DNA of 64,000 nt, from positions 480,001 through 544,000 of the forward strand of contig CAWHAZ010000005.1 in the NCBI GenBank assembly GCA_963827475.1. Direction: 5' to 3'. The notes under the pieces are model-generated. The model did no database searches, had not been told where the DNA came from, and saw only the letters and a list, made by a program, of their open reading frames with translations. This document shows positions 4,272 through 50,060 of the stretch, piece by piece. Position 1 is the first letter of the stretch. Each line of letters starts with the position of its first letter. The stretch comes from an uncultured Chloroflexia bacterium (GTDB taxonomy: Bacteria; Chloroflexota; Limnocylindria; QHBO01). The position numbers and the translations under genes were made by a program.

Positions 4272-7200
4272 GTGACCCTCGTCTGCGCCAACTGCCGGAC
4301 CGAAAACCCGGCGGGCGCCAAGTTCTGCACCGAATGCGCATCGCCGCTTGCCCGGCCATGCGCGAATTGCGGTACCGCCAACCCGGCGGGCGCGAAGTTC
4401 TGCGGTGAATGTGCCGCTCCGATCGCCACCGGCGAAGCAACGGCAGGTGCGACGATTAGTGCCCCGCAAGCGGCCTCGACGACGCCCCACGAAGCCGAGC
4501 GCCGCCTCGTTTCGATCCTGTTCGCCGACCTGGTCGGCTTCACGCCGTTCGCCGAGGAGCGCGATGCGGAAGAGGTCCGTGAGTCGCTGAGCCGCTACTT
4601 CGAGCTCGCCCGCCAGGTCATCGAGCGCTACGGCGGGACTGTCGAGAAGTTCATCGGTGACGCGGTCATGGCGGTGTGGGGCGTGCCGACCACCCATGAG
4701 GATGACGCGGAGCGCGCGGTCCGGGCCGGGCTGGACCTCGTTGACGCCGTTCGCGCCCTCGGCCCAGGAGTCGAGGCCCGAGCAGGTGTGTTGACCGGCG
4801 AGGCGGCGGTCACGATCGGTGCGACTGACCAGGGCATGGTCGCTGGCGACCTGGTGAACACCGCGTCGCGCCTCCAGGGAGCGGCCGCGCCCGGCACGGT
4901 CCTCGTGGGCGAGGCCACCCAGCGCGCCGCCTCAGCCGGCATCCTGTTCGAGCCCGCCGGGGAACAGGCCCTGAAGGGCAAGAGCGCTCCCATCCCCGCC
5001 TGGCGCGCCGTCCGGATCGTGGGCGGCGTCCGGGGCAGATGGCGCAGCGACGGCCCCGAGGCTCCGTTCATCGGCCGCCACGACGAGCTGACCCTTCTGA
5101 AGGACCTCTACCACGCCACGGCACGCGAGAAGCGGGCGCGGCTGGTGTCGGTGGTTGGCCCGGCGGGCATCGGCAAGAGCAGGCTCGGGCGGGAGTTCCT
5201 GAACCACGTCGACGCCGAGGCCGACGACTTCTGGCTCCACCATGGCCGGAGCCCGGCGTATGGCGAAGGACTGACCTTCTGGGCGCTGGGCGAGATGATC
5301 CGCCAGCGGGCCGGCCTGGCAGAGACCGATGACGAGGCGACCACGCGCGCCGGGATCCACGCCATGGTTGCGGAACACATCCCTGACGAGGCGGATCGCC
5401 GCTGGATCGAGCCCGCCATGCTCTCGCTGCTGGGCCTCGGGGACGGCTCCATCGGCACGGAACAGCTATTCGGAGCGTGGCGGTCGTTCTTCGAGCGCCT
5501 TGCCAGCGACGTCCCGGTGGTGCTCGTGTTCGAAGACCTCCACTGGGCGGACAGCGGCATGCTCGACTTCGTCGACTACCTGCTCGAGTGGAGCCGCTCG
5601 CAGCCGATCTACATCCTGACGCTGGCCCGGCCGGAGCTGCTCGAGAGGCGCCCGACGTGGGGAGCAGGCAAGCGCCAGTTCACATCGGTGTATCTCGAAC
5701 CGTTGCCCGAGCCGGCTATCCGGGAACTGCTGACAGGTTTGGTGCCGGGTCTGCCAGATCAGGCCGCGCGCGCTATCGCTGCCCGCGCCGACGGTGTCCC
5801 GCTCTACGCCGTCGAGACCGTCCGGATGCTGGTGGCCGATGGTCGCCTGGTCGAAACCGACGGCGTGTATACGCCCAGCGGCGATCTCAGCACGCTTGCC
5901 GTGCCGGAGTCGCTCACGGCGCTCATCGCCTCGCGGCTGGACGCGCTCGAAACGGATGCCCGTGCCCTGGCCCAGGACGCGTCGGTGCTCGGCCAGCGAT
6001 TCACCATCGCCGGACTCGCCGCGGTCAGCGGCCTCGAGGCGTCCACCCTCACCCCACTGCTGGAGACCCTCGTTCGCCGCGAGCTGCTGGCCATGGAGAC
6101 CGATCCGCGGTCACCCGAGCGAAACCAATACGGGTTCGTGCAGTCGCTGATCCGCGAGGTGACCTACAACACGCTTGCCCGCCGCGACCGCAAGATTCGT
6201 CACCTGGCCGCTGCACGGTTCTTCGAGAGCCTCGACACAGATGAGCTGGCTGGAGGACTCGCGGGCCAATACCTCGCAGCCCACGCCAACGCGGATGGGC
6301 CGGAGGAAACGGCCGCCCTGGCTGCCCAGGCTCGAGTCGCGCTGCGGGCCGCCGCCGACCGGGCGCTGGCCCTCGGCGGGACCGAGCAGGCTTTCGAGTT
6401 CCTTCGACAGGCACTCGCACTGGCGCACGAGCCATCGGACGCTGCCGATCTAGCGCTGCGCGCGGGCGCGGCCGCGGGGGATTCGGGGCGGTATCACGAC
6501 GCCGAGGAGCTGCTTCAGCAGGCTCGCAATGGCTTCAGCGCGGTGGAGGACCAGAACGGATCCGACCAGGCTCTCACCTTGCAAGCCTCAGCCATGATCA
6601 ACGGGGGCCGATACACGGATGCGGTCGACCTGCTCGAGCCGGCGCTGAGCGGCATCGATGACTTCTCGGCCCGACCGGGCCTCATTGCCGCTGGCGGTCA
6701 GCTGGCACGCGCGCAGATGCTGCAGATCACGAACGCCGGCCTGGCGATCGCTGCGAGCGACCGCGTCCTCCCAGCGGCGGAGCGCGCCAACAACGGGGCA
6801 CTCGTGGCGGACCTGCTGATCACCAAGGGGACCGCGATGTCCATGGCGGGCCGCAGACGGGAGGGCCTGGCCTTGATCCGGGCCGGTGGTGACCTCGGTG
6901 AATCGCTCGGCGCCAGCAGCGTCGTCATTCGTTCCCTGATCAACCAGGCTTCGGCACTCGAATGGTTCTCCCCGCGCGACGTCCTGTCCGGGACCCAGCG
7001 GGGACTGACCGAGGCCAAGCGGATCGGAAGCCGTGCCCAGATGATCGTCCTGGTAGCCAACGGGTTCGAATCGGCCATCATGACGGGGGACTGGGAGTGG
7101 GCGGCATCCGAAATCGGTTCGCTCCTAGACGAGGACCTCGAAGGAGGAGACCGGCTCCTCGCCCTGGGAATGGTGACGATCTTCCGCGCTTTGCGTGGGG

Positions 7201-7808
7201 AGCCTCGATCGGAACTGCTGGACGAAATCCGACGGATGGATCTGAGCGAGCCCTTCCTTCGGGACACGGTCCACACGTACCTGGGCCTGAGTGCCCTGGC
7301 CGATGGCGAGCTCGAAGAGGCGCGCGAACGACTCGATGCATCGCGAGCGCTGGGCCAGGTCTGGGTCACCGACTCCGGATGGGCCGTCCATCTGGCGACG
7401 TGGCTACGGGACACCGGGGGGCTTCGCGGGATCCTCGGCGATCTGCGCGGGGTCTCCGCACATGGTCCTGTCGCGGAGACCCTGAGCGCGAATGCCGAAG
7501 CGGGCATTGCCGCTCTCGCCGGCCGCGTGGGCGATGCGGTGACTCTTTACCAGCGGGCACGTGCCGGATGGCATGAACTCGGGCTGCCGTTCGCTGAGGC
7601 GCTCGCCGGGATCGACATGGCCACGGTACTTGACCCGAACCTGCCGGAAGTCGCGGATGCCATCGAGCGGAGTCGCCAGGTCTTCACCGAGCTCGGCGCC
7701 ACGCCACTCCTGGCCCGGCTCGAGGCGGAGGCCGCCAAGGCCAACTCACCGCCCCCAGCAACCGCGGAGCCGGTTCCGGTTGCGGAAACCGAGGTCGCCG
7801 CGGGCTGA
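4272..7808 (+). CDS. Double zinc ribbon + class III adenylate/guanylate cyclase + AAA/STAND ATPase + TPR-like protein
   Basis: CxxC ribbons; FADLVGF, KFIGDAVM, GDLVNTASRLQ; Walker A GPAGIGKS; Walker B LVFEDLHWAD; helical C-terminus. Confidence 0.92.
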   Translation: MTLVCANCRTENPAGAKFCTECASPLARPCANCGTANPAGAKFCGECAAPIATGEATAGATISAPQAASTTPHEAERRLVSILFADLVGFTPFAEERDAEEVRESLSRYFELARQVIERYGGTVEKFIGDAVMAVWGVPTTHEDDAERAVRAGLDLVDAVRALGPGVEARAGVLTGEAAVTIGATDQGMVAGDLVNTASRLQGAAAPGTVLVGEATQRAASAGILFEPAGEQALKGKSAPIPAWRAVRIVGGVRGRWRSDGPEAPFIGRHDELTLLKDLYHATAREKRARLVSVVGPAGIGKSRLGREFLNHVDAEADDFWLHHGRSPAYGEGLTFWALGEMIRQRAGLAETDDEATTRAGIHAMVAEHIPDEADRRWIEPAMLSLLGLGDGSIGTEQLFGAWRSFFERLASDVPVVLVFEDLHWADSGMLDFVDYLLEWSRSQPIYILTLARPELLERRPTWGAGKRQFTSVYLEPLPEPAIRELLTGLVPGLPDQAARAIAARADGVPLYAVETVRMLVADGRLVETDGVYTPSGDLSTLAVPESLTALIASRLDALETDARALAQDASVLGQRFTIAGLAAVSGLEASTLTPLLETLVRRELLAMETDPRSPERNQYGFVQSLIREVTYNTLARRDRKIRHLAAARFFESLDTDELAGGLAGQYLAAHANADGPEETAALAAQARVALRAAADRALALGGTEQAFEFLRQALALAHEPSDAADLALRAGAAAGDSGRYHDAEELLQQARNGFSAVEDQNGSDQALTLQASAMINGGRYTDAVDLLEPALSGIDDFSARPGLIAAGGQLARAQMLQITNAGLAIAASDRVLPAAERANNGALVADLLITKGTAMSMAGRRREGLALIRAGGDLGESLGASSVVIRSLINQASALEWFSPRDVLSGTQRGLTEAKRIGSRAQMIVLVANGFESAIMTGDWEWAASEIGSLLDEDLEGGDRLLALGMVTIFRALRGEPRSELLDEIRRMDLSEPFLRDTVHTYLGLSALADGELEEARERLDASRALGQVWVTDSGWAVHLATWLRDTGGLRGILGDLRGVSAHGPVAETLSANAEAGIAALAGRVGDAVTLYQRARAGWHELGLPFAEALAGIDMATVLDPNLPEVADAIERSRQVFTELGATPLLARLEAEAAKANSPPPATAEPVPVAETEVAAG

Positions 7809-41123: not shown

Positions 41124-41954
41124 GTGTCCGATCCACGCCAGACCGGCTCCGAGCCGCCTTCCGCATGGGCAGCCGCGGCGCGCTCTGGGCGCCGCGTGGG
41201 AAACCGGGTCGAGTTCCATGCCGAGATCGGGTCCACCAACGATCGAGCTCGCGCCGCGCTGGCCGAGGGCGCGGAGGACGGCCTGGCCGTCGTGGCGGAC
41301 CGCCAGCTGGCCGGTCGCGGACGGATGGGTCGGACATGGCTGTCACCGGCCGGCGTCAACCTCCTGGTCAGCGTGGGTATCCGCCTCGATCTTCCCGTCG
41401 AGCGGGCGTGGTGGCTCGCGGCCGGCGCCGCGCTCGCCCTGCGCTCCGCGGCGCAGGACGCGGTCGGGCCCGCTGCCGCGCTCTCGGTTCGCTGGCCGAA
41501 CGACCTGGTCACGGCCGACGGACTGAAGGTGGCCGGCCAGCTGATCGAAACCGAGATCGAGGCCGCGCGGGTCGCCTGGTCGGTGATCGGGATGGGGCTC
41601 AACGTGAACTGGCCGCGGGCTGACATGCCGTCGGACATCGCGTCGGGCGCCACCTCGCTGGTGGACCTCGCGGCCGGCGCCATCGACCGCGTGGCGCTCC
41701 TCGGCGACCTGCTCGCGGCGCTGGACAGGGAGATCACCGAGATCGAAGCTGGGATCTCGCCCCATGTCCGCTTCCAGTCCGCTTCGTGGCTCACGGGGCG
41801 CGAGATCGAGGTCGAGACGCCCGCGGGTCGCCTGGCCGGGGTGGCGGGCGCCATCGCCGACAACGGCGGGCTCGTGCTCGACGGCCCGACGGTCCACACC
41901 ACGGTCACCGTGGGCGAGGTGATCCGCGTGCGCGCGGCGGCGATGGCCGGATGA
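41124..41954 (+). CDS. birA: Biotin--protein ligase (no N-terminal HTH)
   Basis: STND, QLAGRGRMGRTW, WPND, KVAG; heads the acc operon. Confidence 0.92.
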   Translation: MSDPRQTGSEPPSAWAAAARSGRRVGNRVEFHAEIGSTNDRARAALAEGAEDGLAVVADRQLAGRGRMGRTWLSPAGVNLLVSVGIRLDLPVERAWWLAAGAALALRSAAQDAVGPAAALSVRWPNDLVTADGLKVAGQLIETEIEAARVAWSVIGMGLNVNWPRADMPSDIASGATSLVDLAAGAIDRVALLGDLLAALDREITEIEAGISPHVRFQSASWLTGREIEVETPAGRLAGVAGAIADNGGLVLDGPTVHTTVTVGEVIRVRAAAMAG

Positions 41955-42595
41955 GCGACCTGCGCCCGCGGCCCGCCCTCGACCTCGACCCGAACCGTGA
42001 TCGGCCGGGGCGCGATCACGCCAGCGGGACCGATCCGGACCTGGCCGACGTCCAGGCCGCGCAGCGCGACCGTCGCGCCTTCGACCGGCTCTATCGCCGG
42101 TACCTGGATCGGGTCTACAGCTACGCCTTCTACCAGTTGGGCGACCACCACGAGGCAGAGGACGTGACCGAACGCACGTTCCTCGCCGCCCTGGCCGGGA
42201 TCGACGGCTTCACCGATGAAGGGGCCACCTTCCGATCGTGGCTGTTCCGGATCGCCCACAACACGATCGCCAACGCGCACCGGTTCCGCCGCCGCCGGCG
42301 GACCGAGCCCATCTCCGACGCGCAGCACCACCACGCGCCCGGGGCGGACCCGGCCGGTGTCGTGGCTCGCGCCGACGAGGGTCGCCTCATCCGCGAGGCG
42401 CTGGCCCGCATCCCCGCCGACCGTCGCCAGGCCATCGTCCTGCGGTTCGTCGACGGTCTGTCGGCTCGCGAGATCGGGGCCGTCCTCGACCGCAGCGAGG
42501 GCGCCGCCCGGGTGCTGCTCCACCGGGCCCTGCGGGACCTTGCGAGTGAGCTCGGCCCGCGCGGCGGCGACGACGACGTGGGCGACCGGCTGTAA
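41951..42595 (+). CDS. ECF RNA polymerase sigma factor
   Basis: AEDVTERTF, FRSWLFRIAHN, region 4 HTH (EIGAVL...LLHRAL). Confidence 0.92.
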   Translation: MSDLRPRPALDLDPNRDRPGRDHASGTDPDLADVQAAQRDRRAFDRLYRRYLDRVYSYAFYQLGDHHEAEDVTERTFLAALAGIDGFTDEGATFRSWLFRIAHNTIANAHRFRRRRRTEPISDAQHHHAPGADPAGVVARADEGRLIREALARIPADRRQAIVLRFVDGLSAREIGAVLDRSEGAARVLLHRALRDLASELGPRGGDDDVGDRL

Positions 42596-42629: not shown

Positions 42630-42974
42630 ATGATCATCCGCCACGCCTCCCGACCGACCGACGCCGAGCGCATCGACCAGGCCGTCACCTCCGTCCTCGA
42701 GGGATTGCCGGTCGCGGTCCCGCCAACCCTCGCCGAGGAGCTCGCCATGGCCCGGGCCCTGCGGGAAGGCCTGCATCCCATCCCACCGGGAGCGGGCTTC
42801 GAGGCAGGCCTCGCGCGCCGCCTGGAGGCAGGCGCCGTGCCCGGCGGCGACAAACTTCCGTCGTTTCTCCGCCATCACCACCGCCTGCTGGTGACCGGAG
42901 CCGTCGGCTCGTTCGTGGTCAGCACCGCGGGGATGGCCGTCGTCGCCTGGCGCATCGTCCATCGGTCGCCATGA
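42630..42974 (+). CDS. Hypothetical protein with a C-terminal TM helix (putative anti-sigma)
   Basis: Directly after the ECF sigma; helical N-terminus, single C-terminal TM; ATGA overlap with accD. Confidence 0.6.
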   Translation: MIIRHASRPTDAERIDQAVTSVLEGLPVAVPPTLAEELAMARALREGLHPIPPGAGFEAGLARRLEAGAVPGGDKLPSFLRHHHRLLVTGAVGSFVVSTAGMAVVAWRIVHRSP

Positions 42975-43918
42975 AGATCAAATTCCCCTTCAGCCGCCGC
43001 AGCGCCCCCGCCGACGCGTGGACCAAGTGCCCGCGCTGCGAGGGCCAGCTGTTCAACCGTCAGCTCGAACGCAACGGCCGGGTGTGCCCCACCTGCAGCC
43101 ACCACTTCCGGCTGTCTGCGCCCGAGCGGATCGAGCTCCTGGTCGACCCGGGCTCCTTCGTCGAGCGGGATGCCGGTCTGTTCAGCGGCGACCCGTTGGC
43201 CTTCGTCGACAGCAAGCCGTATCCGGAGCGGCTCGAGTCCTCCCGTGTCCGGTCCGGGCTGCCGGAGGCCGCGCTCTGGGGCATGGCTCGCATCGAGGGC
43301 CAGCCGGTGGCGCTCGGCCTGTTCGACTTCCGGTTCATGGGCGGCTCGATGGGCAGCGTCGTGGGTGAGAAGGTGGCCCGCTGCTTCGAGGGTGGCCTCG
43401 CCGAGCGCGTCCCAGTCGTCGTCGTCAGCGCCTCCGGCGGCGCCCGGATGCAGGAGGGGACGATCTCGCTGCTCCAGCTGGCGAAAACGACCGCTGCCCT
43501 GGGACGGCTGAACGAGGCCGGGATCCCGTTCATCAGCGTCCTCACCGACCCCACCACCGGTGGCGTGCTGGCCAGCTTCGCGTCGCTCGGCGACGTCATC
43601 CTCGCCGAGCCGGGGGCGCTGATCGGGTTCGCCGGGGCGCGCGTCGCCAGCGGTACGGTGGGCGAGGAGCTCCCCGAGGGCTTCCAGAGCGCGGAGCGGC
43701 TGCTGGAGCACGGGTTCGTGGACGCCGTCGTCCCGCGCGGCCAGCTGCGGACCACCGTCGCCCGTCTCCTCCGCGTCCTGCCCGTGGCCGGCCCGGCGAC
43801 GAACGGCGACGGACGCCGCGCGATCCGACCGATCGGCGCGTTGCAGGGCCTCGCTCAGCGCGTCGGCGGCGCGGTCAGCGAGCAGGCAGGCATCGACACC
43901 GAGGCACCGCCGCGATGA
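42971..43918 (+). CDS. accD: Acetyl-CoA carboxylase carboxyltransferase beta
   Basis: WTKCPRC...CPTC zinc finger, FMGGSMG, SGGARMQEG, PTTGGV. Confidence 0.95.
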   Translation: MKIKFPFSRRSAPADAWTKCPRCEGQLFNRQLERNGRVCPTCSHHFRLSAPERIELLVDPGSFVERDAGLFSGDPLAFVDSKPYPERLESSRVRSGLPEAALWGMARIEGQPVALGLFDFRFMGGSMGSVVGEKVARCFEGGLAERVPVVVVSASGGARMQEGTISLLQLAKTTAALGRLNEAGIPFISVLTDPTTGGVLASFASLGDVILAEPGALIGFAGARVASGTVGEELPEGFQSAERLLEHGFVDAVVPRGQLRTTVARLLRVLPVAGPATNGDGRRAIRPIGALQGLAQRVGGAVSEQAGIDTEAPPR

Positions 43919-44892
43919 CCGAGATGTCCGTCCAGACCACTCCGCCGGAGGTCAGCCCGGAGGCGGCCGAGGCCGCGTGGCGACGCGTCCAGCTCGCCCG
44001 TCACCCGCAGCGGCCGCGCACCCTGTCGCTCGTCGCCCAGATCTTCGACGATTTCGTCGAGCTCCACGGGGACCGTGCGTTCCGCGACGACCCGGCCATC
44101 GTCGGCGGCCCGGCGCGGCTCGACGGACGAGCGGTCATGGTCATCGGCCACCAGAAGGGGTCCGACACCGAGTCGAACATCTTCCGCAACTTCGGCTCAC
44201 CGATGCCGGAGGGCTTCCGCAAGGCACAGCGCCTGATGCGCCTGGCCGACCGGGTCGGCATGCCGCTGGTCACCTTCCTCGACACCGCCGGAGCATTCCC
44301 CGGGCCTGCGGCCGAGGAGCGCGGCCAGGCCGAGGCGATCGCGAGCTCCATCCAGCTCATGACCGGGCTGCGGGTCCCGATCGTGGTCGTCATCGTCGGC
44401 GAGGGCGGGTCCGGCGGCGCGCTGGCCATCGGCGTCGGGGACGAGGTGCTGGCCCTCGAGAACGCGGTCTACTCCGTCATCAGCCCGGAGGGGTGCGCCG
44501 CCATCCTGTGGCGATCCGCCGATGCGGCGCCCCTGGCCGCGGCGGCGATGAAGATGACGGCTGCCGAGCAGCACGAGCTGGGGATCGTGGATGGCGTCAT
44601 CGACGAGCCCGGCGAGGGGGCCCATACCGATCTCCCCGCGACCGCTGCCGCGATCAAGCGGGCGGTGATCGGTTCGGTGGCCCGCCTGGAGCGGATGGCG
44701 CCCGACGACCTGCGGGCCCGTCGCTACACGCGGCTGCGGGCGATCGGCACCGTCCTCGAGGGCGAAGCCGAAGCGCTGCGAGTCGGTCCCCCGTCGCTCA
44801 CGGCGCGCCTGGGTCGGCTGCTCGGCCTCCCCGGTGCTGTTCCCGAGCCGGCCGGGATGGACGACGAGGACCTCGACGAGGAGGGCGCATGA
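43915..44892 (+). CDS. accA: Acetyl-CoA carboxylase carboxyltransferase alpha
   Basis: ARHPQRP, LHGDR, EERGQAEAIA, GEGGSGGA, SVISPEGCA. Confidence 0.95.
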   Translation: MTEMSVQTTPPEVSPEAAEAAWRRVQLARHPQRPRTLSLVAQIFDDFVELHGDRAFRDDPAIVGGPARLDGRAVMVIGHQKGSDTESNIFRNFGSPMPEGFRKAQRLMRLADRVGMPLVTFLDTAGAFPGPAAEERGQAEAIASSIQLMTGLRVPIVVVIVGEGGSGGALAIGVGDEVLALENAVYSVISPEGCAAILWRSADAAPLAAAAMKMTAAEQHELGIVDGVIDEPGEGAHTDLPATAAAIKRAVIGSVARLERMAPDDLRARRYTRLRAIGTVLEGEAEALRVGPPSLTARLGRLLGLPGAVPEPAGMDDEDLDEEGA

Positions 44893-45363
44893 CCGATTCC
44901 ACCGATCCGGCCCGCCGACATGGCGATCGCGGCCGCGGCGCTCATCCCCGCCCTCACCGAGCGGCTGCAGCGCCACGGGCTCGGCGAGATCGAGATTCGC
45001 CAGGGTGACCTCCGGGTCCGCGTCGCGGCTGCCCCGGGCGCCGATGGCGGCCGCCCGGCGTCCGGCGGCGTCGAGGTCACCGTCGACCGATCCGGGGTCG
45101 GCGTCACCGCGACCACCGGCGGCGCGGCTCCCCTCGACCCGGTCACCTCGCCGGCTGTCGGGCACTTCGTCTATGCCGACGGGCTCGGCCCCGGTCTCTC
45201 GGTGAATGCCGGCACGGAGATTGGATTCGTCGAGATGCTCGGCATCCGTCACGAGGTCCGCGCCCCCGCGGACGGCATCGTCCGCCACCTGGTCGCCGAG
45301 AGCGGGGAGCCGGTGGAGTACGGCCAGCTGCTGGTCGAGATCGACCGGGCGGCCCCCGGCTGA
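44889..45363 (+). CDS. AccB-like biotinyl-domain protein lacking the biotin-accepting lysine (start 44889 with an indel near 44912, or 44920)
   Basis: BCCP-like N-terminus (GLGEIEIRQGDLRVRV), VTSPAVG, EVRAPADGIV...GEPVEYGQLL; EAMK replaced by EMLG. Confidence 0.85.
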
Positions 45364-46727
45364 TGTTCGCCAAGGTCCTGATCGCCAATCGCGGTGAGAT
45401 CGCCGTCCGCATCCTGCGGACCTGCCGCGAGATGGGGATTCCGGCCGTCGTCGCCTTCAGCGAGCCGGACCGCGAGTCACTGGCCGTGCGGCTCGCTGAC
45501 GAGGCCATCTGCATCGGTCCGGCGGAGGCCCGGCGGTCGTACCTGAACCAGCCGGCGCTCATCAGCGCCGCGCTCATCACCGGCTGTGACGCCATCCACC
45601 CCGGCTACGGCTTCCTCTCTGAGGATGCGTCGTTCGCGGAAGCCTGCGCGGTCCACGATCTCGCCTTCATCGGTCCGCGGGCGCAGGTGCTGGAGCGGTT
45701 TGCCTCGAAGTACGCCGTGCGACGGATGCTGGCCGCCAACGGTCTCCCCACCGTGCCCGGCAGCACCGGGATCGTGGCCGACCTGCAGGACGCCCTGGTC
45801 CAGGCCGAGGCCGCCGGCTACCCGGTCCTCCTCAAGCCGTCGGCCGGTGGCGGCGGACGGGGCATGCGCCTCGTCCGCTCCCCGCGCGAGATGGAGACGC
45901 AGCTCCCGCTGGCGCGCTCCGAGGCCCGCGCCGCGTTCGGCGACGACTCGCTCTACTTCGAGCGTTGGATCGAGGACAACCGCCACGTGGAGGTCCAGGT
46001 CCTGATCGACAGCCACGGCAACGGGATCCACCTCGGCGAGCGGGACTGCTCGGTCCAGCGGCGGCACCAGAAGATCATCGAGGAGGGCCCATCGCCGGCC
46101 ATGGACCAGCCAGCCCGGGAGCGGCTCCGCGACCTCGCCATCCGCTCGGTGCGGGCCGCAGGCTACGAGAACGCGGGCACCCTGGAGTTCCTCCTCGACC
46201 GGGAGGGCAACTTCTACTTCATCGAGATCAACTGCCGGATCCAGGTCGAGCACCCGGTGACCGAGATGCTGACCGGGATCGACCTGGTCGCGGAGCAGAT
46301 CCGGATCGCGGCCGGCGAGCCGCTGACCATGACCCAGGAACAGGTCGCGCTGCGCGGCCACGCCATCGAGTTCCGGATCACGGCCGAGGACCCCCACGAC
46401 AACTTCGCGCCGCAGAGTGGGATGGTGTCGGAGGTGCAGCTGCCGGGAGGCGCCGGCGTGCGGGTCGACACCCATCTCTACCCCGGATACGAGATCCCGC
46501 CCTATTACGACTCGCTGCTGGCCAAGCTCATCGTGTGGGGTGAGGACCGCGCGGAGGCGTTGGCCCGTTCGCGACGGGCGCTGGCCGAGCTGCGGATCGA
46601 CGGCGTGAAGACGAACCTCCCCTTCCACCGGGCGATCGTCGACAATGCGGCCTTCGTGGACGCGGAGGTCAGCACCAGCCTGCTGGACCGCGTTGGACCC
46701 GCCGCCTTCGTCGGCGAGCCAGCCTGA
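45363..46727 (+). CDS. accC: Biotin carboxylase
   Basis: [38 protein letters not shown]. Confidence 0.96.
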
Positions 46728-46738
46728 GCGGAGGACCG

Positions 46739-47254
46739 ATGACGACCGATTCGCCCATCCCCGCCGCCCCGGACCCGAGCCTGCCGCCGCTCCCCTGGGA
46801 AGCGGCCACGATCATGCAGATCATCCCGCACCGCTACCCGTTTCTCCTCATCGACCGGGTGGTGGAGATCGATCCAGGCCGGCGGGTTGTCGCCATCCGC
46901 AACGTCACCGCCAACGAGCCCCAGTTCCGCGGCCACTTCCCCGACCGCCCGATCATGCCCGGCGTCCTGCTCGTGGAGTCCCTGGCCCAGGCGGGCTGCG
47001 TGGCCGTCCTGTCCACGCCCGAAAACCGCGGCAAGCTCGTCCTGTTCGGCGGCATCGACGAGTGCAAGTTCCGCCGCATCGTCGTCCCCGGCGACACGCT
47101 CCGCCTCGAGATCACCGTCGAGAAGCTCGGTCGCGTCTCCGGCCGCGCCCGGGCGGTGGCCTTGGTCGAGGGCGAGGTCGCCTGCGAGGCCTACCTGACG
47201 TTCATCATGCCCCGCGACCAGGATCTCGGCGGCAGCCGGGCGAGCGGTGGCTGA
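46739..47254 (+). CDS. fabZ: 3-hydroxyacyl-ACP dehydratase
   Basis: [25 protein letters not shown]. Confidence 0.95.
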
Positions 47255-48554
47255 CCGGGCACCAGCGCGCAGCTCCGCCGAGCGCGGGGAGCGCCGCGTG
47301 GTCATCACCGGCCTCGGGGCAGTCACGCCGCTCGGCAACGACGTGGCGACGTACTGGGACGGGCTGGTGGCCGGACGCAGCGGGATCGACCGGATCGCGA
47401 GCTTCGACCCGAGCGGCGTTCCCTCCCAGGTGGGCGGCGAGATCAAGGGCTTCGAGGCGGAGCAGTACATGGATCGCAAGGACGTCCGCCGCAACGACCG
47501 GTACGTCCACTACGCGTGGGCCGCGGCCGCGCAGGCCCTCGCCGACGCCGGCCTGCCGAACCCGATCACCGAGGACGCGGAGGCGGAGCGGGCGGGAGCG
47601 ATCGTCGCCACCGGCATCGGCGGCGTGACCTCGCTCGTGCGGGACGCCCAGGCTGCCCTGACCGAGGGCTACGACCGGGTCAGCCCGTTCAGCATCCTGA
47701 ACATGATCCCGGACACCGCCGCGGGGCACGTGGCCATCGCCGCCAACCTCCGCGGCCCGAACTACGCCACCGTCAGCGCCTGCGCCTCCTCGAACCATGG
47801 CATCGGGGAGGCGGCCGGCATCATCCGCCGCGGTGACGCGGACGTGATGGTGGCCGGCGGATCGGAGGCCGCCATCTGCGAGATGGTGGTGGCGGCGTTC
47901 TGTGCCATGCGGGCCCTGTCCACCAAGCGCAACGACGACCCGCAGCGTGCCTCGCGGCCGTTCGACGTGGATCGCGACGGCTTCGTCATCGCGGACGGTG
48001 CCGGGATGATCGTGCTGGAGGAGCTCGAGCACGCCCGCGCCCGCGGCGCCCGAATTCGCGGCGAGTTCATCGGCTACGGCGCCTCGGACGACGCGTCCCA
48101 TGTAACGCTCCCCGCGCCCGGCGGTCGGGGGGCGGTCGCCAGCATGCGCATCGCGCTGGCCGACGCGGGCCTTGAGCCCGCCGAGCTGTCCTACATCAAC
48201 GCTCACGGGACCTCGACCCCGCCCAACGACCCGGCCGAGACGACCGCCATCAAGACCGTTTTCGGCGAGGACGCGTACCGCATCCCGGTCAGCAGCACGA
48301 AATCGATGACCGGCCACCTCATGGGCGCGGGCGGCGGCATCGAGGCCGTGGCCTGCGTCCGCGCCCTCGAGACGGGCACCCTGCCCCCGACCATCAACCA
48401 CGAGCAGCCCGACCCCGAGTGCGACCTCGACTATGTCCCGAACGTCGCCCGCGAGGTCCCGATCGAGACGGCGATGAGCAACGCCTTCGGCTTCGGTGGC
48501 CACAACGCCACGCTCGTCTTCCGCCGCTGGGCCAACGGCCAGGCGGAACGCTGA
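47247..48554 (+). CDS. fabF: Beta-ketoacyl-ACP synthase II
   Basis: [29 protein letters not shown]. Confidence 0.95.
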
Positions 48555-48557
48555 CCA

Positions 48558-48987
48558 ATGGCGGACGACCCCATCCTCAAGGCTGTTGACGCCCTGACCG
48601 GCCCCTTTCTGGAGAGCGGCCTCGAGGAGCTCGAGGTGGAGAGTGGTGGCATCACCGTCCGACTGGCGCGTCCCCGGGCGCCGGCCCCCGCGGCACCGAC
48701 CGGCTCATCGGCGCTCGGGAACCCCGTATGGCGAACCCGCGGCCGGGCATCGGTTCATCACCGCCCCGCTGACTGGGGTCTGGTACACCGCTCCGTCCCC
48801 CGGGGCGCGGGCCTACCTCCAGCTGAACGGGGAGGTGGCCGCCGGCCAGGTGGTCGGGCTGATCGAGGCCATGAAGCTGTTCAACGAGATCAAGTCCGAC
48901 GTGGCCGGGACCGTGAGCCGCATCCTGGCCGACAATGGGGCGCTGGTGAAGCGCCAGCAGCCGTTGTACGAGGTGCGCCTGGCATGA
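48558..48987 (+). CDS. accB: Canonical biotin carboxyl carrier protein (frameshift near 48725)
   Basis: ESGLEELEVE N-terminus; ITAPLTGVWYTAPSP, IEAMKLFNEIKSD. Confidence 0.9.
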
Positions 48988-50060
48988 CCCCGACCCGAGC
49001 CGTGATCAGCGGGTGGGGGATGTACGCCCCCGAACGGGTCATGACCAACGAGGACCTGTCGAAGATCGTCGACACCACCGACGAGTGGATCCGGACCCGG
49101 ACCGGGATCCGCGAGCGGCGGATCGCGGCCGAGGGCGAGACGACGGCCACCCTCTCCACCCTGGCGGCCCGCGACGCGCTGGCGGTGGCGGGCGTGGACG
49201 CGGCCGACGTGGATCTCGTGATCGTGGCGACGGCGAGCCCCGATTACCTCATGCCCGCCACTGGCGTCCTCGTCGCGCGCGACCTCGGCGCCACCCGCGC
49301 CGCCGGTTTCGACCTCAACGCCGCCTGTTCCGGCTTCGTGTTCGGCCTCGCCGCCGGGGCGAGCTTCGTGACCAGCGGCATGTACCGCCAGGTCCTGGTC
49401 GTGGGCGTCGACCTGCTGAGCCGCTACCTGGATTGGACCGACCGCAACACCTGCGTCCTGTTCGGCGACGGGGCGGGAGCCGTCCTGCTGTCCGCGTCCG
49501 AGGGGCCGGGCGGGCTGCTCGGCGTCCAGCTGTACAGCGACGGGACCGGGGAGCAGGGGATCATCATCCCCGGCGGCGGGACCGCCCACCCCGCGACGGA
49601 GGAGACCGTGCGCGACCGGCTGCACTTCATGCGGATGGCCGGCAAGGAGGTCTACCGCTACGCCACCCGGCAGCTGGCCGAGACCACCCAGGCCGCCGTT
49701 CGAGAGGCCGGCCTGCGGATGACCGATGTCGACCTGTTCCTCTACCACCAGGCCAACCTGCGGATCCTCGAGACGGTCCGCGACCTGCTCGGCATCCCGT
49801 CCGAGAAGGTGTTCGTCAACCTCGACCGATACGGAAACACCTCGGCCGCCTCCGTCCCCATGGCACTCGCCGAAGCGGTGGCGACCGGCCGGGTGCAGGT
49901 CGGGGACCGACTTCTGATGGGGGCATTCGGCGCGGGCTACACCGCCGGCGCGGCGGTCGTGGAGTGGACGGCGGACCCATCGCGCTTCGCGCTGGCGCCC
50001 GGCGAGCAGACGCGCGCCGGCCAGCCCCGACGCGAGCCGGTCGGCGCTGGGGTCGACTGA
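48984..50060 (+). CDS. fabH: Beta-ketoacyl-ACP synthase III
   Basis: AACSGF, LFGDGAGA, HQANLRI, GNTSAAS. Confidence 0.95.
   Translation: MTPTRAVISGWGMYAPERVMTNEDLSKIVDTTDEWIRTRTGIRERRIAAEGETTATLSTLAARDALAVAGVDAADVDLVIVATASPDYLMPATGVLVARDLGATRAAGFDLNAACSGFVFGLAAGASFVTSGMYRQVLVVGVDLLSRYLDWTDRNTCVLFGDGAGAVLLSASEGPGGLLGVQLYSDGTGEQGIIIPGGGTAHPATEETVRDRLHFMRMAGKEVYRYATRQLAETTQAAVREAGLRMTDVDLFLYHQANLRILETVRDLLGIPSEKVFVNLDRYGNTSAASVPMALAEAVATGRVQVGDRLLMGAFGAGYTAGAAVVEWTADPSRFALAPGEQTRAGQPRREPVGAGVD

Follow-up and report, generated by a model that had tools for sequence, protein, structure and literature searches.

A lysine-less paralogue of the biotin carboxyl carrier protein in the acetyl-CoA carboxylase operon of Limnocylindria: a candidate non-catalytic subunit

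This study was concerned with a gene, here called X, in a stretch of 64,000 nucleotides (the window) from an uncultured Chloroflexia bacterium of the class Limnocylindria (assembly GCA_963827475.1, contig CAWHAZ010000005.1, positions 480,001 to 544,000 of the forward strand). X lies among the genes of acetyl-CoA carboxylase (ACC) and encodes a paralogue of the biotin carboxyl carrier protein (BCCP, or AccB) with glycine in place of the lysine that bears biotin. We propose that X is a functional, non-biotinylatable BCCP paralogue that acts as a non-catalytic ACC subunit, resembling the BADC proteins (biotin attachment domain-containing) of plants but probably of independent origin, and we give this reading a probability of about 0.55. 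That X represents a conserved family is well supported, and the mechanism suggested for it by structural models is plausible. Heteromeric ACC performs the committed step of fatty-acid synthesis and is a target of antibiotics and herbicides. The assembly of its four subunits is still under study; the tube filaments of the E. coli enzyme were reported only in 2024, according to the available part of PMC11160672.

An initial annotation, made from the sequence alone, described two BCCP-like genes in the operon, and both are present: X at 44920-45363 and a canonical carrier, here called accB2, at 48558-48987. The two differ at the hairpin that carries the lysine (GFVEMLGIRHEV in X versus GLIEAMKLFNEI in accB2). 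Gly108 of X (codon 45241-45243) aligns with the biotinyl-lysine of IEAMKLFNEI in accB2, VEMLG replaces EAMK, and the MNE downstream of it is also lost. Counted from the conserved glycine of strand 1 to the hairpin, X falls 6 residues short of accB2, and it is without a PSP thumb; the motif VEMLGIRHEV and the missing thumb are thus as first described. With glycine in the lysine column of X, and likewise in its homologues, the protein is, as far as its sequence tells, unable to carry biotin. The initial annotation also stressed that X has no lysine anywhere. The count is indeed zero, but it carries no weight, because lysine is rare in the neighborhood (1.3% of the residues of six neighboring proteins, which gives P ~0.14 for none in 147 residues) and because 70 of 120 X homologues have one to four lysines elsewhere in their sequence. 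The total absence of lysine was thus rejected as a meaningful trait.

X consists of three parts: an N-terminal helix with two strands (residues 2-37), a variable linker (38-72) and a barrel of the biotinyl type (73-143). The Pfam model PF00364 (Biotin_lipoyl) matches residues 75-141 with 31.1 bits, above its cut-off of 22.1. The NCBIfam BCCP model TIGR00531 is spanned over positions 12-155 of its 156, although the score of 33.5 bits falls below the cut-off of 115.2. An AlphaFold2 model, built from an alignment of 35 rows, has a mean pLDDT (predicted local distance difference test) of 86, with ~98 in the C-terminal barrel and low confidence in the linker at 38-72; its N-terminus forms a helix (2-19) and strands at 23-28 and 31-37. 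The best Foldseek match is 1bdo, the biotinyl domain of E. coli BCCP (E 4e-6, target TM score 0.83, 32% identity), and chain G of 4hr7, also a BCCP biotinyl domain, is among the best PDB matches. The model therefore agrees with the initial statement that the BCCP N-terminal segment and the barrel are kept, the former as an alpha/beta/beta motif joined by a flexible linker. In E. coli BCCP the first 30 residues form such a motif, proposed in the available part of PMC11160672 to oligomerise in the center of ACC tubes. Compared with canonical AccB (E. coli AccB; TIGR00531; 1BDO, 4HR7), X thus shares the three-part architecture, the fold and the C-terminal VEYGQ strand; unlike it, X lacks the biotinyl-lysine in its (E)AMK hairpin, the MNE that follows and the thumb between strands 2 and 3, and stays below the TIGR00531 cut-off. 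Public records name such proteins "acetyl-CoA carboxylase biotin carboxyl carrier protein", "biotin/lipoyl-containing protein" or "hypothetical protein". The first name needs correction, since by their sequence these proteins cannot carry biotin.

The loss of the lysine is not peculiar to this genome. The pattern [VI]E[MV]LG[IV]RH[ED]V was found in 120 of the 120 best X homologues (57-96% identical), far beyond what chance would produce; close relatives with EAMK would have spoken against the initial proposal. An exhaustive HMMER search of representatives of clusters at 50% identity returned 1207 proteins at E <= 0.001; among the best 150 of these 1207, 145 have glycine at the lysine column, 2 have the canonical lysine, and 3 are truncated or garbled. 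Within the class, 40 of 41 genomes have a match (a tally that takes in the unpublished G016 and G021), and the sole miss was a genome that is 71% complete. All 13 class loci, from five families, have X directly after accA, glycine at the lysine place and an open frame, with hairpin motifs ranging over VEMLG, VDVLG and VQSLG. One Candidatus Limnocylindrales metagenome-assembled genome (MAG), L077, has a canonical AccB whose C-terminal part is almost identical to that of two "Candidatus Acidoferrales" MAGs (L070 and L096); the L077 contig may be mis-binned.

Selection on X was estimated from pairwise Nei-Gojobori ratios of nonsynonymous to synonymous substitution (dN/dS) among 10 genomes of the same genus (45 pairs). 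The ratio was 0.22 for the whole gene, 0.11 for the N-terminal domain, 0.50 for the linker and 0.125 for the C-terminal domain, compared with 0.118 for accC and 0.127 for the C-terminal domain of accB2. X as a whole evolves faster than its neighbors, and the excess stems from the linker. These ratios, far from the value near 1 expected of a decaying gene, indicate purifying selection.

The faster overall rate is one of two observations that could favor X being a decaying pseudogene or an assembly artefact. The other is that the reading frame is broken by single bases in this assembly, once at the X 5' end, once within accB2 and once within an E2 gene located elsewhere. The true start of X, and the one used by relatives, is the ATG at 44889, where it forms an ATGA overlap with the stop of accA; a homologue 96% identical to X (P0001) begins MTDSTDPARDMA, matching this ATG. 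When the DNA was aligned with that of five relatives, one additional C, at 44915, was seen to put ATG 44889 out of frame, and the in-frame open reading frame begins at 44920. Around the motif, which lies in 44920-45363, the frame is intact, as the initial annotation had stated. The base at 44915 is omitted in all the covering contig depth of the public runs X1, X2 and X5, which come from near-identical populations, and is kept in the only covering depth (2.2) of run X4. Contigs from the RNA libraries X1 and X2 span X at 90-99% identity, which is not evidence of transcription and was not used as such.

The canonical gene was read in part correctly. IEAMKLFNEI is present, but the 430 nt of 48558-48987 are not one open reading frame: the N-terminal domain shares its frame with 48558, the EAMK domain shares its frame with 48643, and an extra base lies near 48713, in the Pro/Ala linker. 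This position was taken from run contigs and not from an alignment to G013, where the variable linker does not allow the exact base to be fixed. Contigs of runs X2, X4 and X5 omit the base at 48713 and, with an in-frame difference in linker length, accB2 stays open in them; it is intact, with EAMK, in 26 of 26 relatives read. Since contigs of near-identical populations lack both bases, the breaks at 44915 and 48713 are probably assembly indels in GC-rich linker DNA and do not mean that the canonical carrier was lost. The E2 dihydrolipoamide acyltransferase gene (G000:C5:609281-611206, - strand, outside the window) loses its frame inside a Pro/Ala linker, and its translation past the subunit-binding domain is Arg-rich nonsense, a third single-frame break in GC-rich linker DNA of this assembly, which likewise suggests indels of the assembly. 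Two few-contig assemblies show similar breaks: in L108 (G010) accA and accC are split over two frames, and in L116 (G001) accC, fabZ, fabH and the accB2 C-terminal domain are. Frame breaks thus seem common in assemblies of the genus, in which a lone frameshift should not be taken as the mark of a pseudogene. For X itself, decay or artefact is refuted by the hairpin motif in all 120 homologues, from many independent assemblies, by the open frame at all 13 class loci, by the survey of representatives, and by the low dN/dS of the folded domains once the faster rate is assigned to the linker; we give that explanation almost no credence.

The gene neighborhood connects X with ACC. A chain of fatty-acid genes runs on the + strand in the order accD, accA, X, accC, fabZ, fabF, accB2, fabH. 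The features are as follows.

41124-41954, + strand: BirA-like biotin-protein ligase without an N-terminal helix-turn-helix, ~1 kb upstream of accD (open reading frame of 276 aa)
42971-43918, + strand: accD, carboxyltransferase beta with zinc ribbon (Pfam Carboxyl_trans and Zn_ribbon_ACC)
43915-44892, + strand: accA, carboxyltransferase alpha (Pfam ACCA, 385 bits)
44889-44919, + strand: original 5' end of X (MTDSTDPAR...), out of frame here (alignment with homologues)
44920-45363, + strand: X, lysine-less and thumb-less BCCP paralogue, 147 aa in frame (Pfam, NCBIfam, alignments, model)
45229-45258, + strand: hairpin codons of X, VEMLGIRHEV (sequence and alignments)
45363-46727, + strand: accC, biotin carboxylase (Pfam Biotin_carb_N, CPSase_L_D2 and Biotin_carb_C)
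46739-47254, + strand: fabZ (Pfam FabA, 110.5 bits)
47247-48554, + strand: fabF (Pfam ketoacyl-synt N and C domains)
48558-48987, + strand: accB2, canonical carrier with IEAMKLFNEI and thumb YTAPSPGA, frame-broken here (sequence, Pfam/NCBIfam)
48984-50060, + strand: fabH (Pfam ACP_syn_III and ACP_syn_III_C)

The accD stop overlaps the accA start, the X stop overlaps the accC start as TGATG (45361-45365), as the initial annotation had noted, and in relatives accA overlaps X. The canonical carrier is encoded between fabF and fabH, the start of the latter overlapping the accB2 stop (ATGA). In other genera of the same family (L014, L110, L111, L119 and L120) X and accC are separated by an insertion of ~1 kb. 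In L014 (G022) this insert, at 5080-6033, appeared fabD-like by eye, without a family search, from a GHSVGEYAAL stretch that we take to be a malonyl-CoA:ACP transacylase signature. Because fabD sits between X and accC in some genera, accA is the constant neighbor of X: the TGATG coupling to accC is specific to the genus and the overlap with accA is general. The accA-X-accC order that the initial annotation suggested examining in relatives is therefore conserved in its first half only.

A possible mode of action was explored with a three-chain prediction of AccC, accB2 and, as partner, X, each given as its own alignment; accB2 was taken from G002, because the copy in the window is frame-broken. 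The complex scored 0.69 and the best of 3 controls 0.15, so the complex prediction proposed at the outset yields modeled contacts of X with both proteins. Among solved complexes, 58 of 80 attain the score mark applied, as do 2 of 110 mismatched pairs; this calibration holds only roughly here, because own alignments and three chains were used. Runs shared at least 91% of contacts, and the pLDDT of the partner was at least 74. In the model, barrel residues 79-82, 106-107, 109, 131 and 133-136 of X touch residues 34, 49-53, 59, 64-72 and 98 of AccC, in its N-terminal domain, and N-terminal residues 8-29, 37 and 39 of X touch accB2 at 4-18 and 31-40. The predicted AccC contacts coincide with columns that are invariant in the X family (A79, V80, G81, L107, E133 and G135) or nearly so (Y134 and Q136).

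Lysine-less carriers also occur outside the class. The X-family profile was searched in 150 Chloroflexota genomes (the resulting tally, 138/151, takes in the window's own genome, G000, and the unpublished G164), and it scored 126-177 bits on X genes of Limnocylindria and at most 89 bits in other classes. The residue at the lysine place was read in 78 of 135 genomes of the same phylum; in the other 57, with G164 left out, best matches were weak, unlisted or absent. Among these 78 non-Limnocylindria genomes the best match lacks the lysine in 55 and has it in 23. By family, a lysine-less copy was found in 15 of the 20 examined outside Limnocylindria, and in all 5 Limnocylindria families read. The residue at the lysine place is G in family f22 (8/8), N in f25 (8/8) and f38 (3/3), Q or H in f18 (9/9), Q in f8 (3/3) and f46 (3/3), D or N in f14 (4/4), G or N in f27 (5/5), N or R in f10 (4/5), G in f34 (2/2), M or N in f33, A in f29, R in f41, N in f47 and D in f17; lysine is kept in f15 (10/10), f32 (5/5), f6 (4/4), f23 (2/2) and f43 (1/1). 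Neither this phylum-wide spread, with its various residues, nor the frameshift in the canonical accB was part of the initial annotation. A homologue search with an efp-linked glycine variant (L123) returned only records of uncultured Chloroflexi/Chloroflexota, and in the ESM Atlas the nearest clusters are from Chloroflexota, with one cluster labeled Armatimonadota at rank 29.

The first 20 loci outside Limnocylindria have a common context of M24 aminopeptidase, efp, the carrier-like gene and xseA, with efp adjacent in 17/20. Where the efp-linked copy is lysine-less, the second-best match proved canonical (E[AT]MK) in 20 of 20 genomes, and it lies beside fabF in 17/20 and beside fabF or fabH in 19/20, the same position as accB2 in the window. 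By comparison, 5 genomes were taken from four families in which the efp-linked copy retains the lysine, and in none of the 5 did a contig with a fabF match also hold a Biotin_lipoyl match, some of these assemblies being fragmented. The lysine is thus missing only where a fab-linked carrier exists, although these counts are not independent events because the genomes are related to one another. The two kinds of carrier also differ in their surfaces. Strand 1 has V-G in 100% of 31 lysine-less proteins from across the phylum, and VEYGQ is kept in 96-100% of them and in 4 of 4 efp-linked proteins with lysine. In contrast, strand 1 reads T-G in the 34 fab-linked carriers, and their VEYGQ is degraded, the commonest residue at each of E, Y, G and Q reaching only 23-61%. 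An unclassified MAG ("bacterium isolate DBS1-2.bin29", L042) has, at 6001-7586, a lysine-less carrier (YVEALGIRNPV) directly upstream of accC, with xseA ~3 kb downstream; this arrangement may be an intermediate.

Since the surfaces kept in the lysine-less proteins and degraded in the fab-linked ones are the modeled AccC contacts, a division of labor between anchor and arm can be proposed. To dock on the N-terminal domain of AccC, X would use strand 1 (AVGH) together with its C-terminal VEYGQ strand, and its N-terminal motif would pair with that of accB2. X would then be the anchor or assembly subunit that docks on biotin carboxylase (BC) and organises the complex, and accB2 the biotin-bearing swinging arm, held in the complex by the pairing of N-terminal motifs. 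Both the binding and this split are what we infer from the model, taken with the observed architecture, conservation, gene coupling and distribution of X. A wider version, that many Chloroflexota split the carrier's jobs between a lysine-less efp-derived AccB that docks on BC and organises the complex, and a fab-linked paralogue in which the VEYGQ surface is lost and which carries the biotin and is tethered by hetero-oligomerisation of the N-termini, is offered tentatively, as a conjecture that we would sooner doubt than accept.

The same surfaces bear on the main rival explanation, namely that X is a competitive decoy or negative regulator that occupies the carrier sites on BC or carboxyltransferase, delivers no biotin there and so throttles malonyl-CoA synthesis. 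Competitive inhibition was the role first proposed for plant BADC. A decoy would fit the placement of the X barrel on AccC and the retention in X of the strand-1 and VEYGQ surfaces of single-copy efp-linked carriers, and the available part of PMC11926652 holds both the inhibitor and the "glue" views of BADC. However, translational coupling to accA and accC implies constitutive and roughly equimolar synthesis, which would be odd for an inhibitor. In addition, the VEYGQ surface is lost in the fab-linked carrier, and there may thus be no shared site for which both proteins compete. Lastly, no regulated promoter or sensor domain was seen, although no systematic search was made. For these reasons we regard a decoy as unlikely and retain the non-catalytic subunit as the preferred reading.

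The history of X was examined with a tree of 87 rows and 99 columns, from which the lysine column had been removed, made with a "quick" method. Fab-linked carriers of all classes group with Limnocylindria accB2 (SH-aLRT, the Shimodaira-Hasegawa-like approximate likelihood ratio test, 91). X of the window, X genes of three Limnocylindria families and efp-linked lysine-less proteins of other classes form a starred clade of 16 rows (96). When all 31 lysine-less rows, a group named only after the tree had been seen, were held as one clade, the log-likelihood (lnL) was 6.8 higher than in the free search, with a p value of the approximately unbiased test (p-AU) of 0.66; a single loss of the lysine is therefore compatible with the data, and its loss in the efp-linked AccB may have been one event. 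In the window's own genome, pepP (M24 aminopeptidase), efp and xseA stand in a row at G000:C5:719299-722180, outside the window, with ~76 nt between efp and xseA, and no carrier gene lies between these two, the slot of the lysine-less gene in other classes. The tree, this empty slot and the arrangement in L042 fit together, and we propose on these grounds that X probably descends from an ancestral efp-linked accB of Chloroflexota. The ancestral arrangement would have been efp-accB(-accC); a fab-linked carrier would then have been gained, the efp-linked copy would have lost its lysine where this second carrier existed, and in Limnocylindria the lysine-less copy would have left the efp-xseA slot for the acc operon. 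Canonical AccB would share this ancestral neighborhood with the X lineage, the efp-accB position being that of other Chloroflexota classes and an order that also occurs in Bacillus and cyanobacteria. A recent, class-specific duplication of accB2 as the origin of X is disfavored by the tree.

Several points weigh against the proposed role and history. First, the support for a role of X is wholly computational. A solved structure exists for BC-BCCP of E. coli (4HR7), and the passing complex score may therefore reflect likeness to it and not binding by X. Furthermore, the score fell to 0.15 when AccC was replaced, so the pairing of the X and accB2 N-terminal motifs is without independent support. 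Secondly, the residue at the lysine place varies by family and the MNE is lost, so the hairpin tip is under no common constraint. Third, the tree rests on only 99 columns and the quick method, and placing X and the accB2 of the class in one clade costs 29.4 lnL but is not rejected (p-AU 0.064). The sequences of other phyla had been retrieved by a VEYGQ pattern and so give no measure of the generality of that motif. Lastly, no acc gene lies within 4 kb of the carrier-like gene at any of the 20 loci outside Limnocylindria; since the lysine-less gene lies between efp and xseA there, an ACC role finds support from gene context in Limnocylindria and L042 alone.

That most classes have the gene outside an acc operon would also suit a role of X outside catalysis. 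X might regulate gene expression, or it might buffer the biotin ligase BirA by binding it without consuming biotinoyl-AMP. In E. coli, accBC is autoregulated by AccB, by way of the N-terminal domain of the protein, a topic named in the available part of PMC11160672. The conservation of the N-terminal domain of X (dN/dS 0.11) and a BirA-like ligase gene ~1 kb upstream of accD point the same way. However, the C-terminal barrel is equally constrained (0.125) and has invariant residues at the predicted AccC contact, which a pure N-domain regulator would not need. X also lacks the thumb, which an AlphaFold2 model in the available part of PMC10863985 puts against the ligase, and no DNA- or RNA-binding feature was seen in X. 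We therefore judge a role outside catalysis quite improbable, and continue with X as a non-catalytic ACC subunit.

The closest known parallel is BADC (BADC1-3 of Arabidopsis, in the plastid heteromeric ACC), which like X is a BCCP homologue without the biotinylation motif. The available parts of PMC11926652 and PMC12706156 describe BADC as binding BC and BCCP and treat it as restricted to plants, with its role disputed between inhibitor and assembly factor or "glue"; in that part of PMC11926652 it is called "unique to the plant htACCase". Similarly, X is encoded beside BC and carboxyltransferase and is modeled as touching BC and the canonical carrier. Unlike BADC, X is bacterial and appears to have arisen inside the Chloroflexota accB lineage, in a tree without plant sequences. 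The contacts differ as well: BADC is proposed to contact the BCCP thumb (available part of PMC11926652), whereas X in the model contacts accB2 through its N-terminal motif. The initial annotation, which suggested a bacterial counterpart of BADC, thus holds as to a conserved lysine-less BCCP paralogue, while kinship is not supported: in a tree that held no BADC sequence X falls inside the efp-linked accB lineage of Chloroflexota, so that common descent with BADC is unlikely and the resemblance probably convergent.

A bacterial precedent of another kind is AccE (epsilon) of actinobacterial acyl-CoA carboxylases, a small non-catalytic subunit that tethers BC-BCCP to the carboxyltransferase core (available part of bioRxiv 10.1101/2025.10.28.685139) and is cited as a bacterial "glue" in the available part of PMC11926652. 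Unlike X, AccE is helical and not a BCCP homologue according to the same part of the preprint, the comparison with X being by description only. The mycobacterial MSMEG_0435-0436 complex was considered as a further precedent and rejected, as it is a KipA/KipI-type pair and not a BCCP homologue. A bacterial lysine-less BCCP was not found in the open-access full-text literature searched, and the available part of the Chloroflexus ACC paper (PMC11077971) mentions none. If our reading is true, BADC-type non-catalytic carriers are not a plant invention, and heteromeric ACCs have reached this solution at least twice; an independently evolved bacterial counterpart would show that the design is recurrent, and would provide a simple setting in which the dispute between "inhibitor" and "glue" could be resolved. 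X also allows the important surfaces to be predicted: docking on BC would rely on strand 1 and VEYGQ, and pairing with the carrier on the N-terminal motif.

Other genes of the genome bear on biotin-dependent enzymes. The ligase gene upstream of accD matches PF03099 with 54.2 bits at G000:C5:521259-521603 (window 41259-41603), and its GRGRMGRTW stretch is one that we take to be a biotin-protein ligase signature. An open reading frame at 41786-42595 (+ strand) overlaps the end of the ligase gene in another frame; by eye, and without a family search, it resembles a sigma factor of the extracytoplasmic function (ECF) type. A second carboxylase set lies outside the window at G000:C3:53782-57254. 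Its carrier has 158 aa and the motif IEAMKMQNEI, its homologue of biotin carboxylase is 49% identical to AccC, and it also includes a carboxyltransferase homologue. In addition, a fused BC-BCCP (LEAMKMEH) is encoded at G000:C5:112562-114700 (- strand, also outside the window). A helix-turn-helix-like stretch (ELGVTVRTVQRWIASGRL) lies upstream of it in the same open frame, and may be either a separate small gene or part of a fusion.

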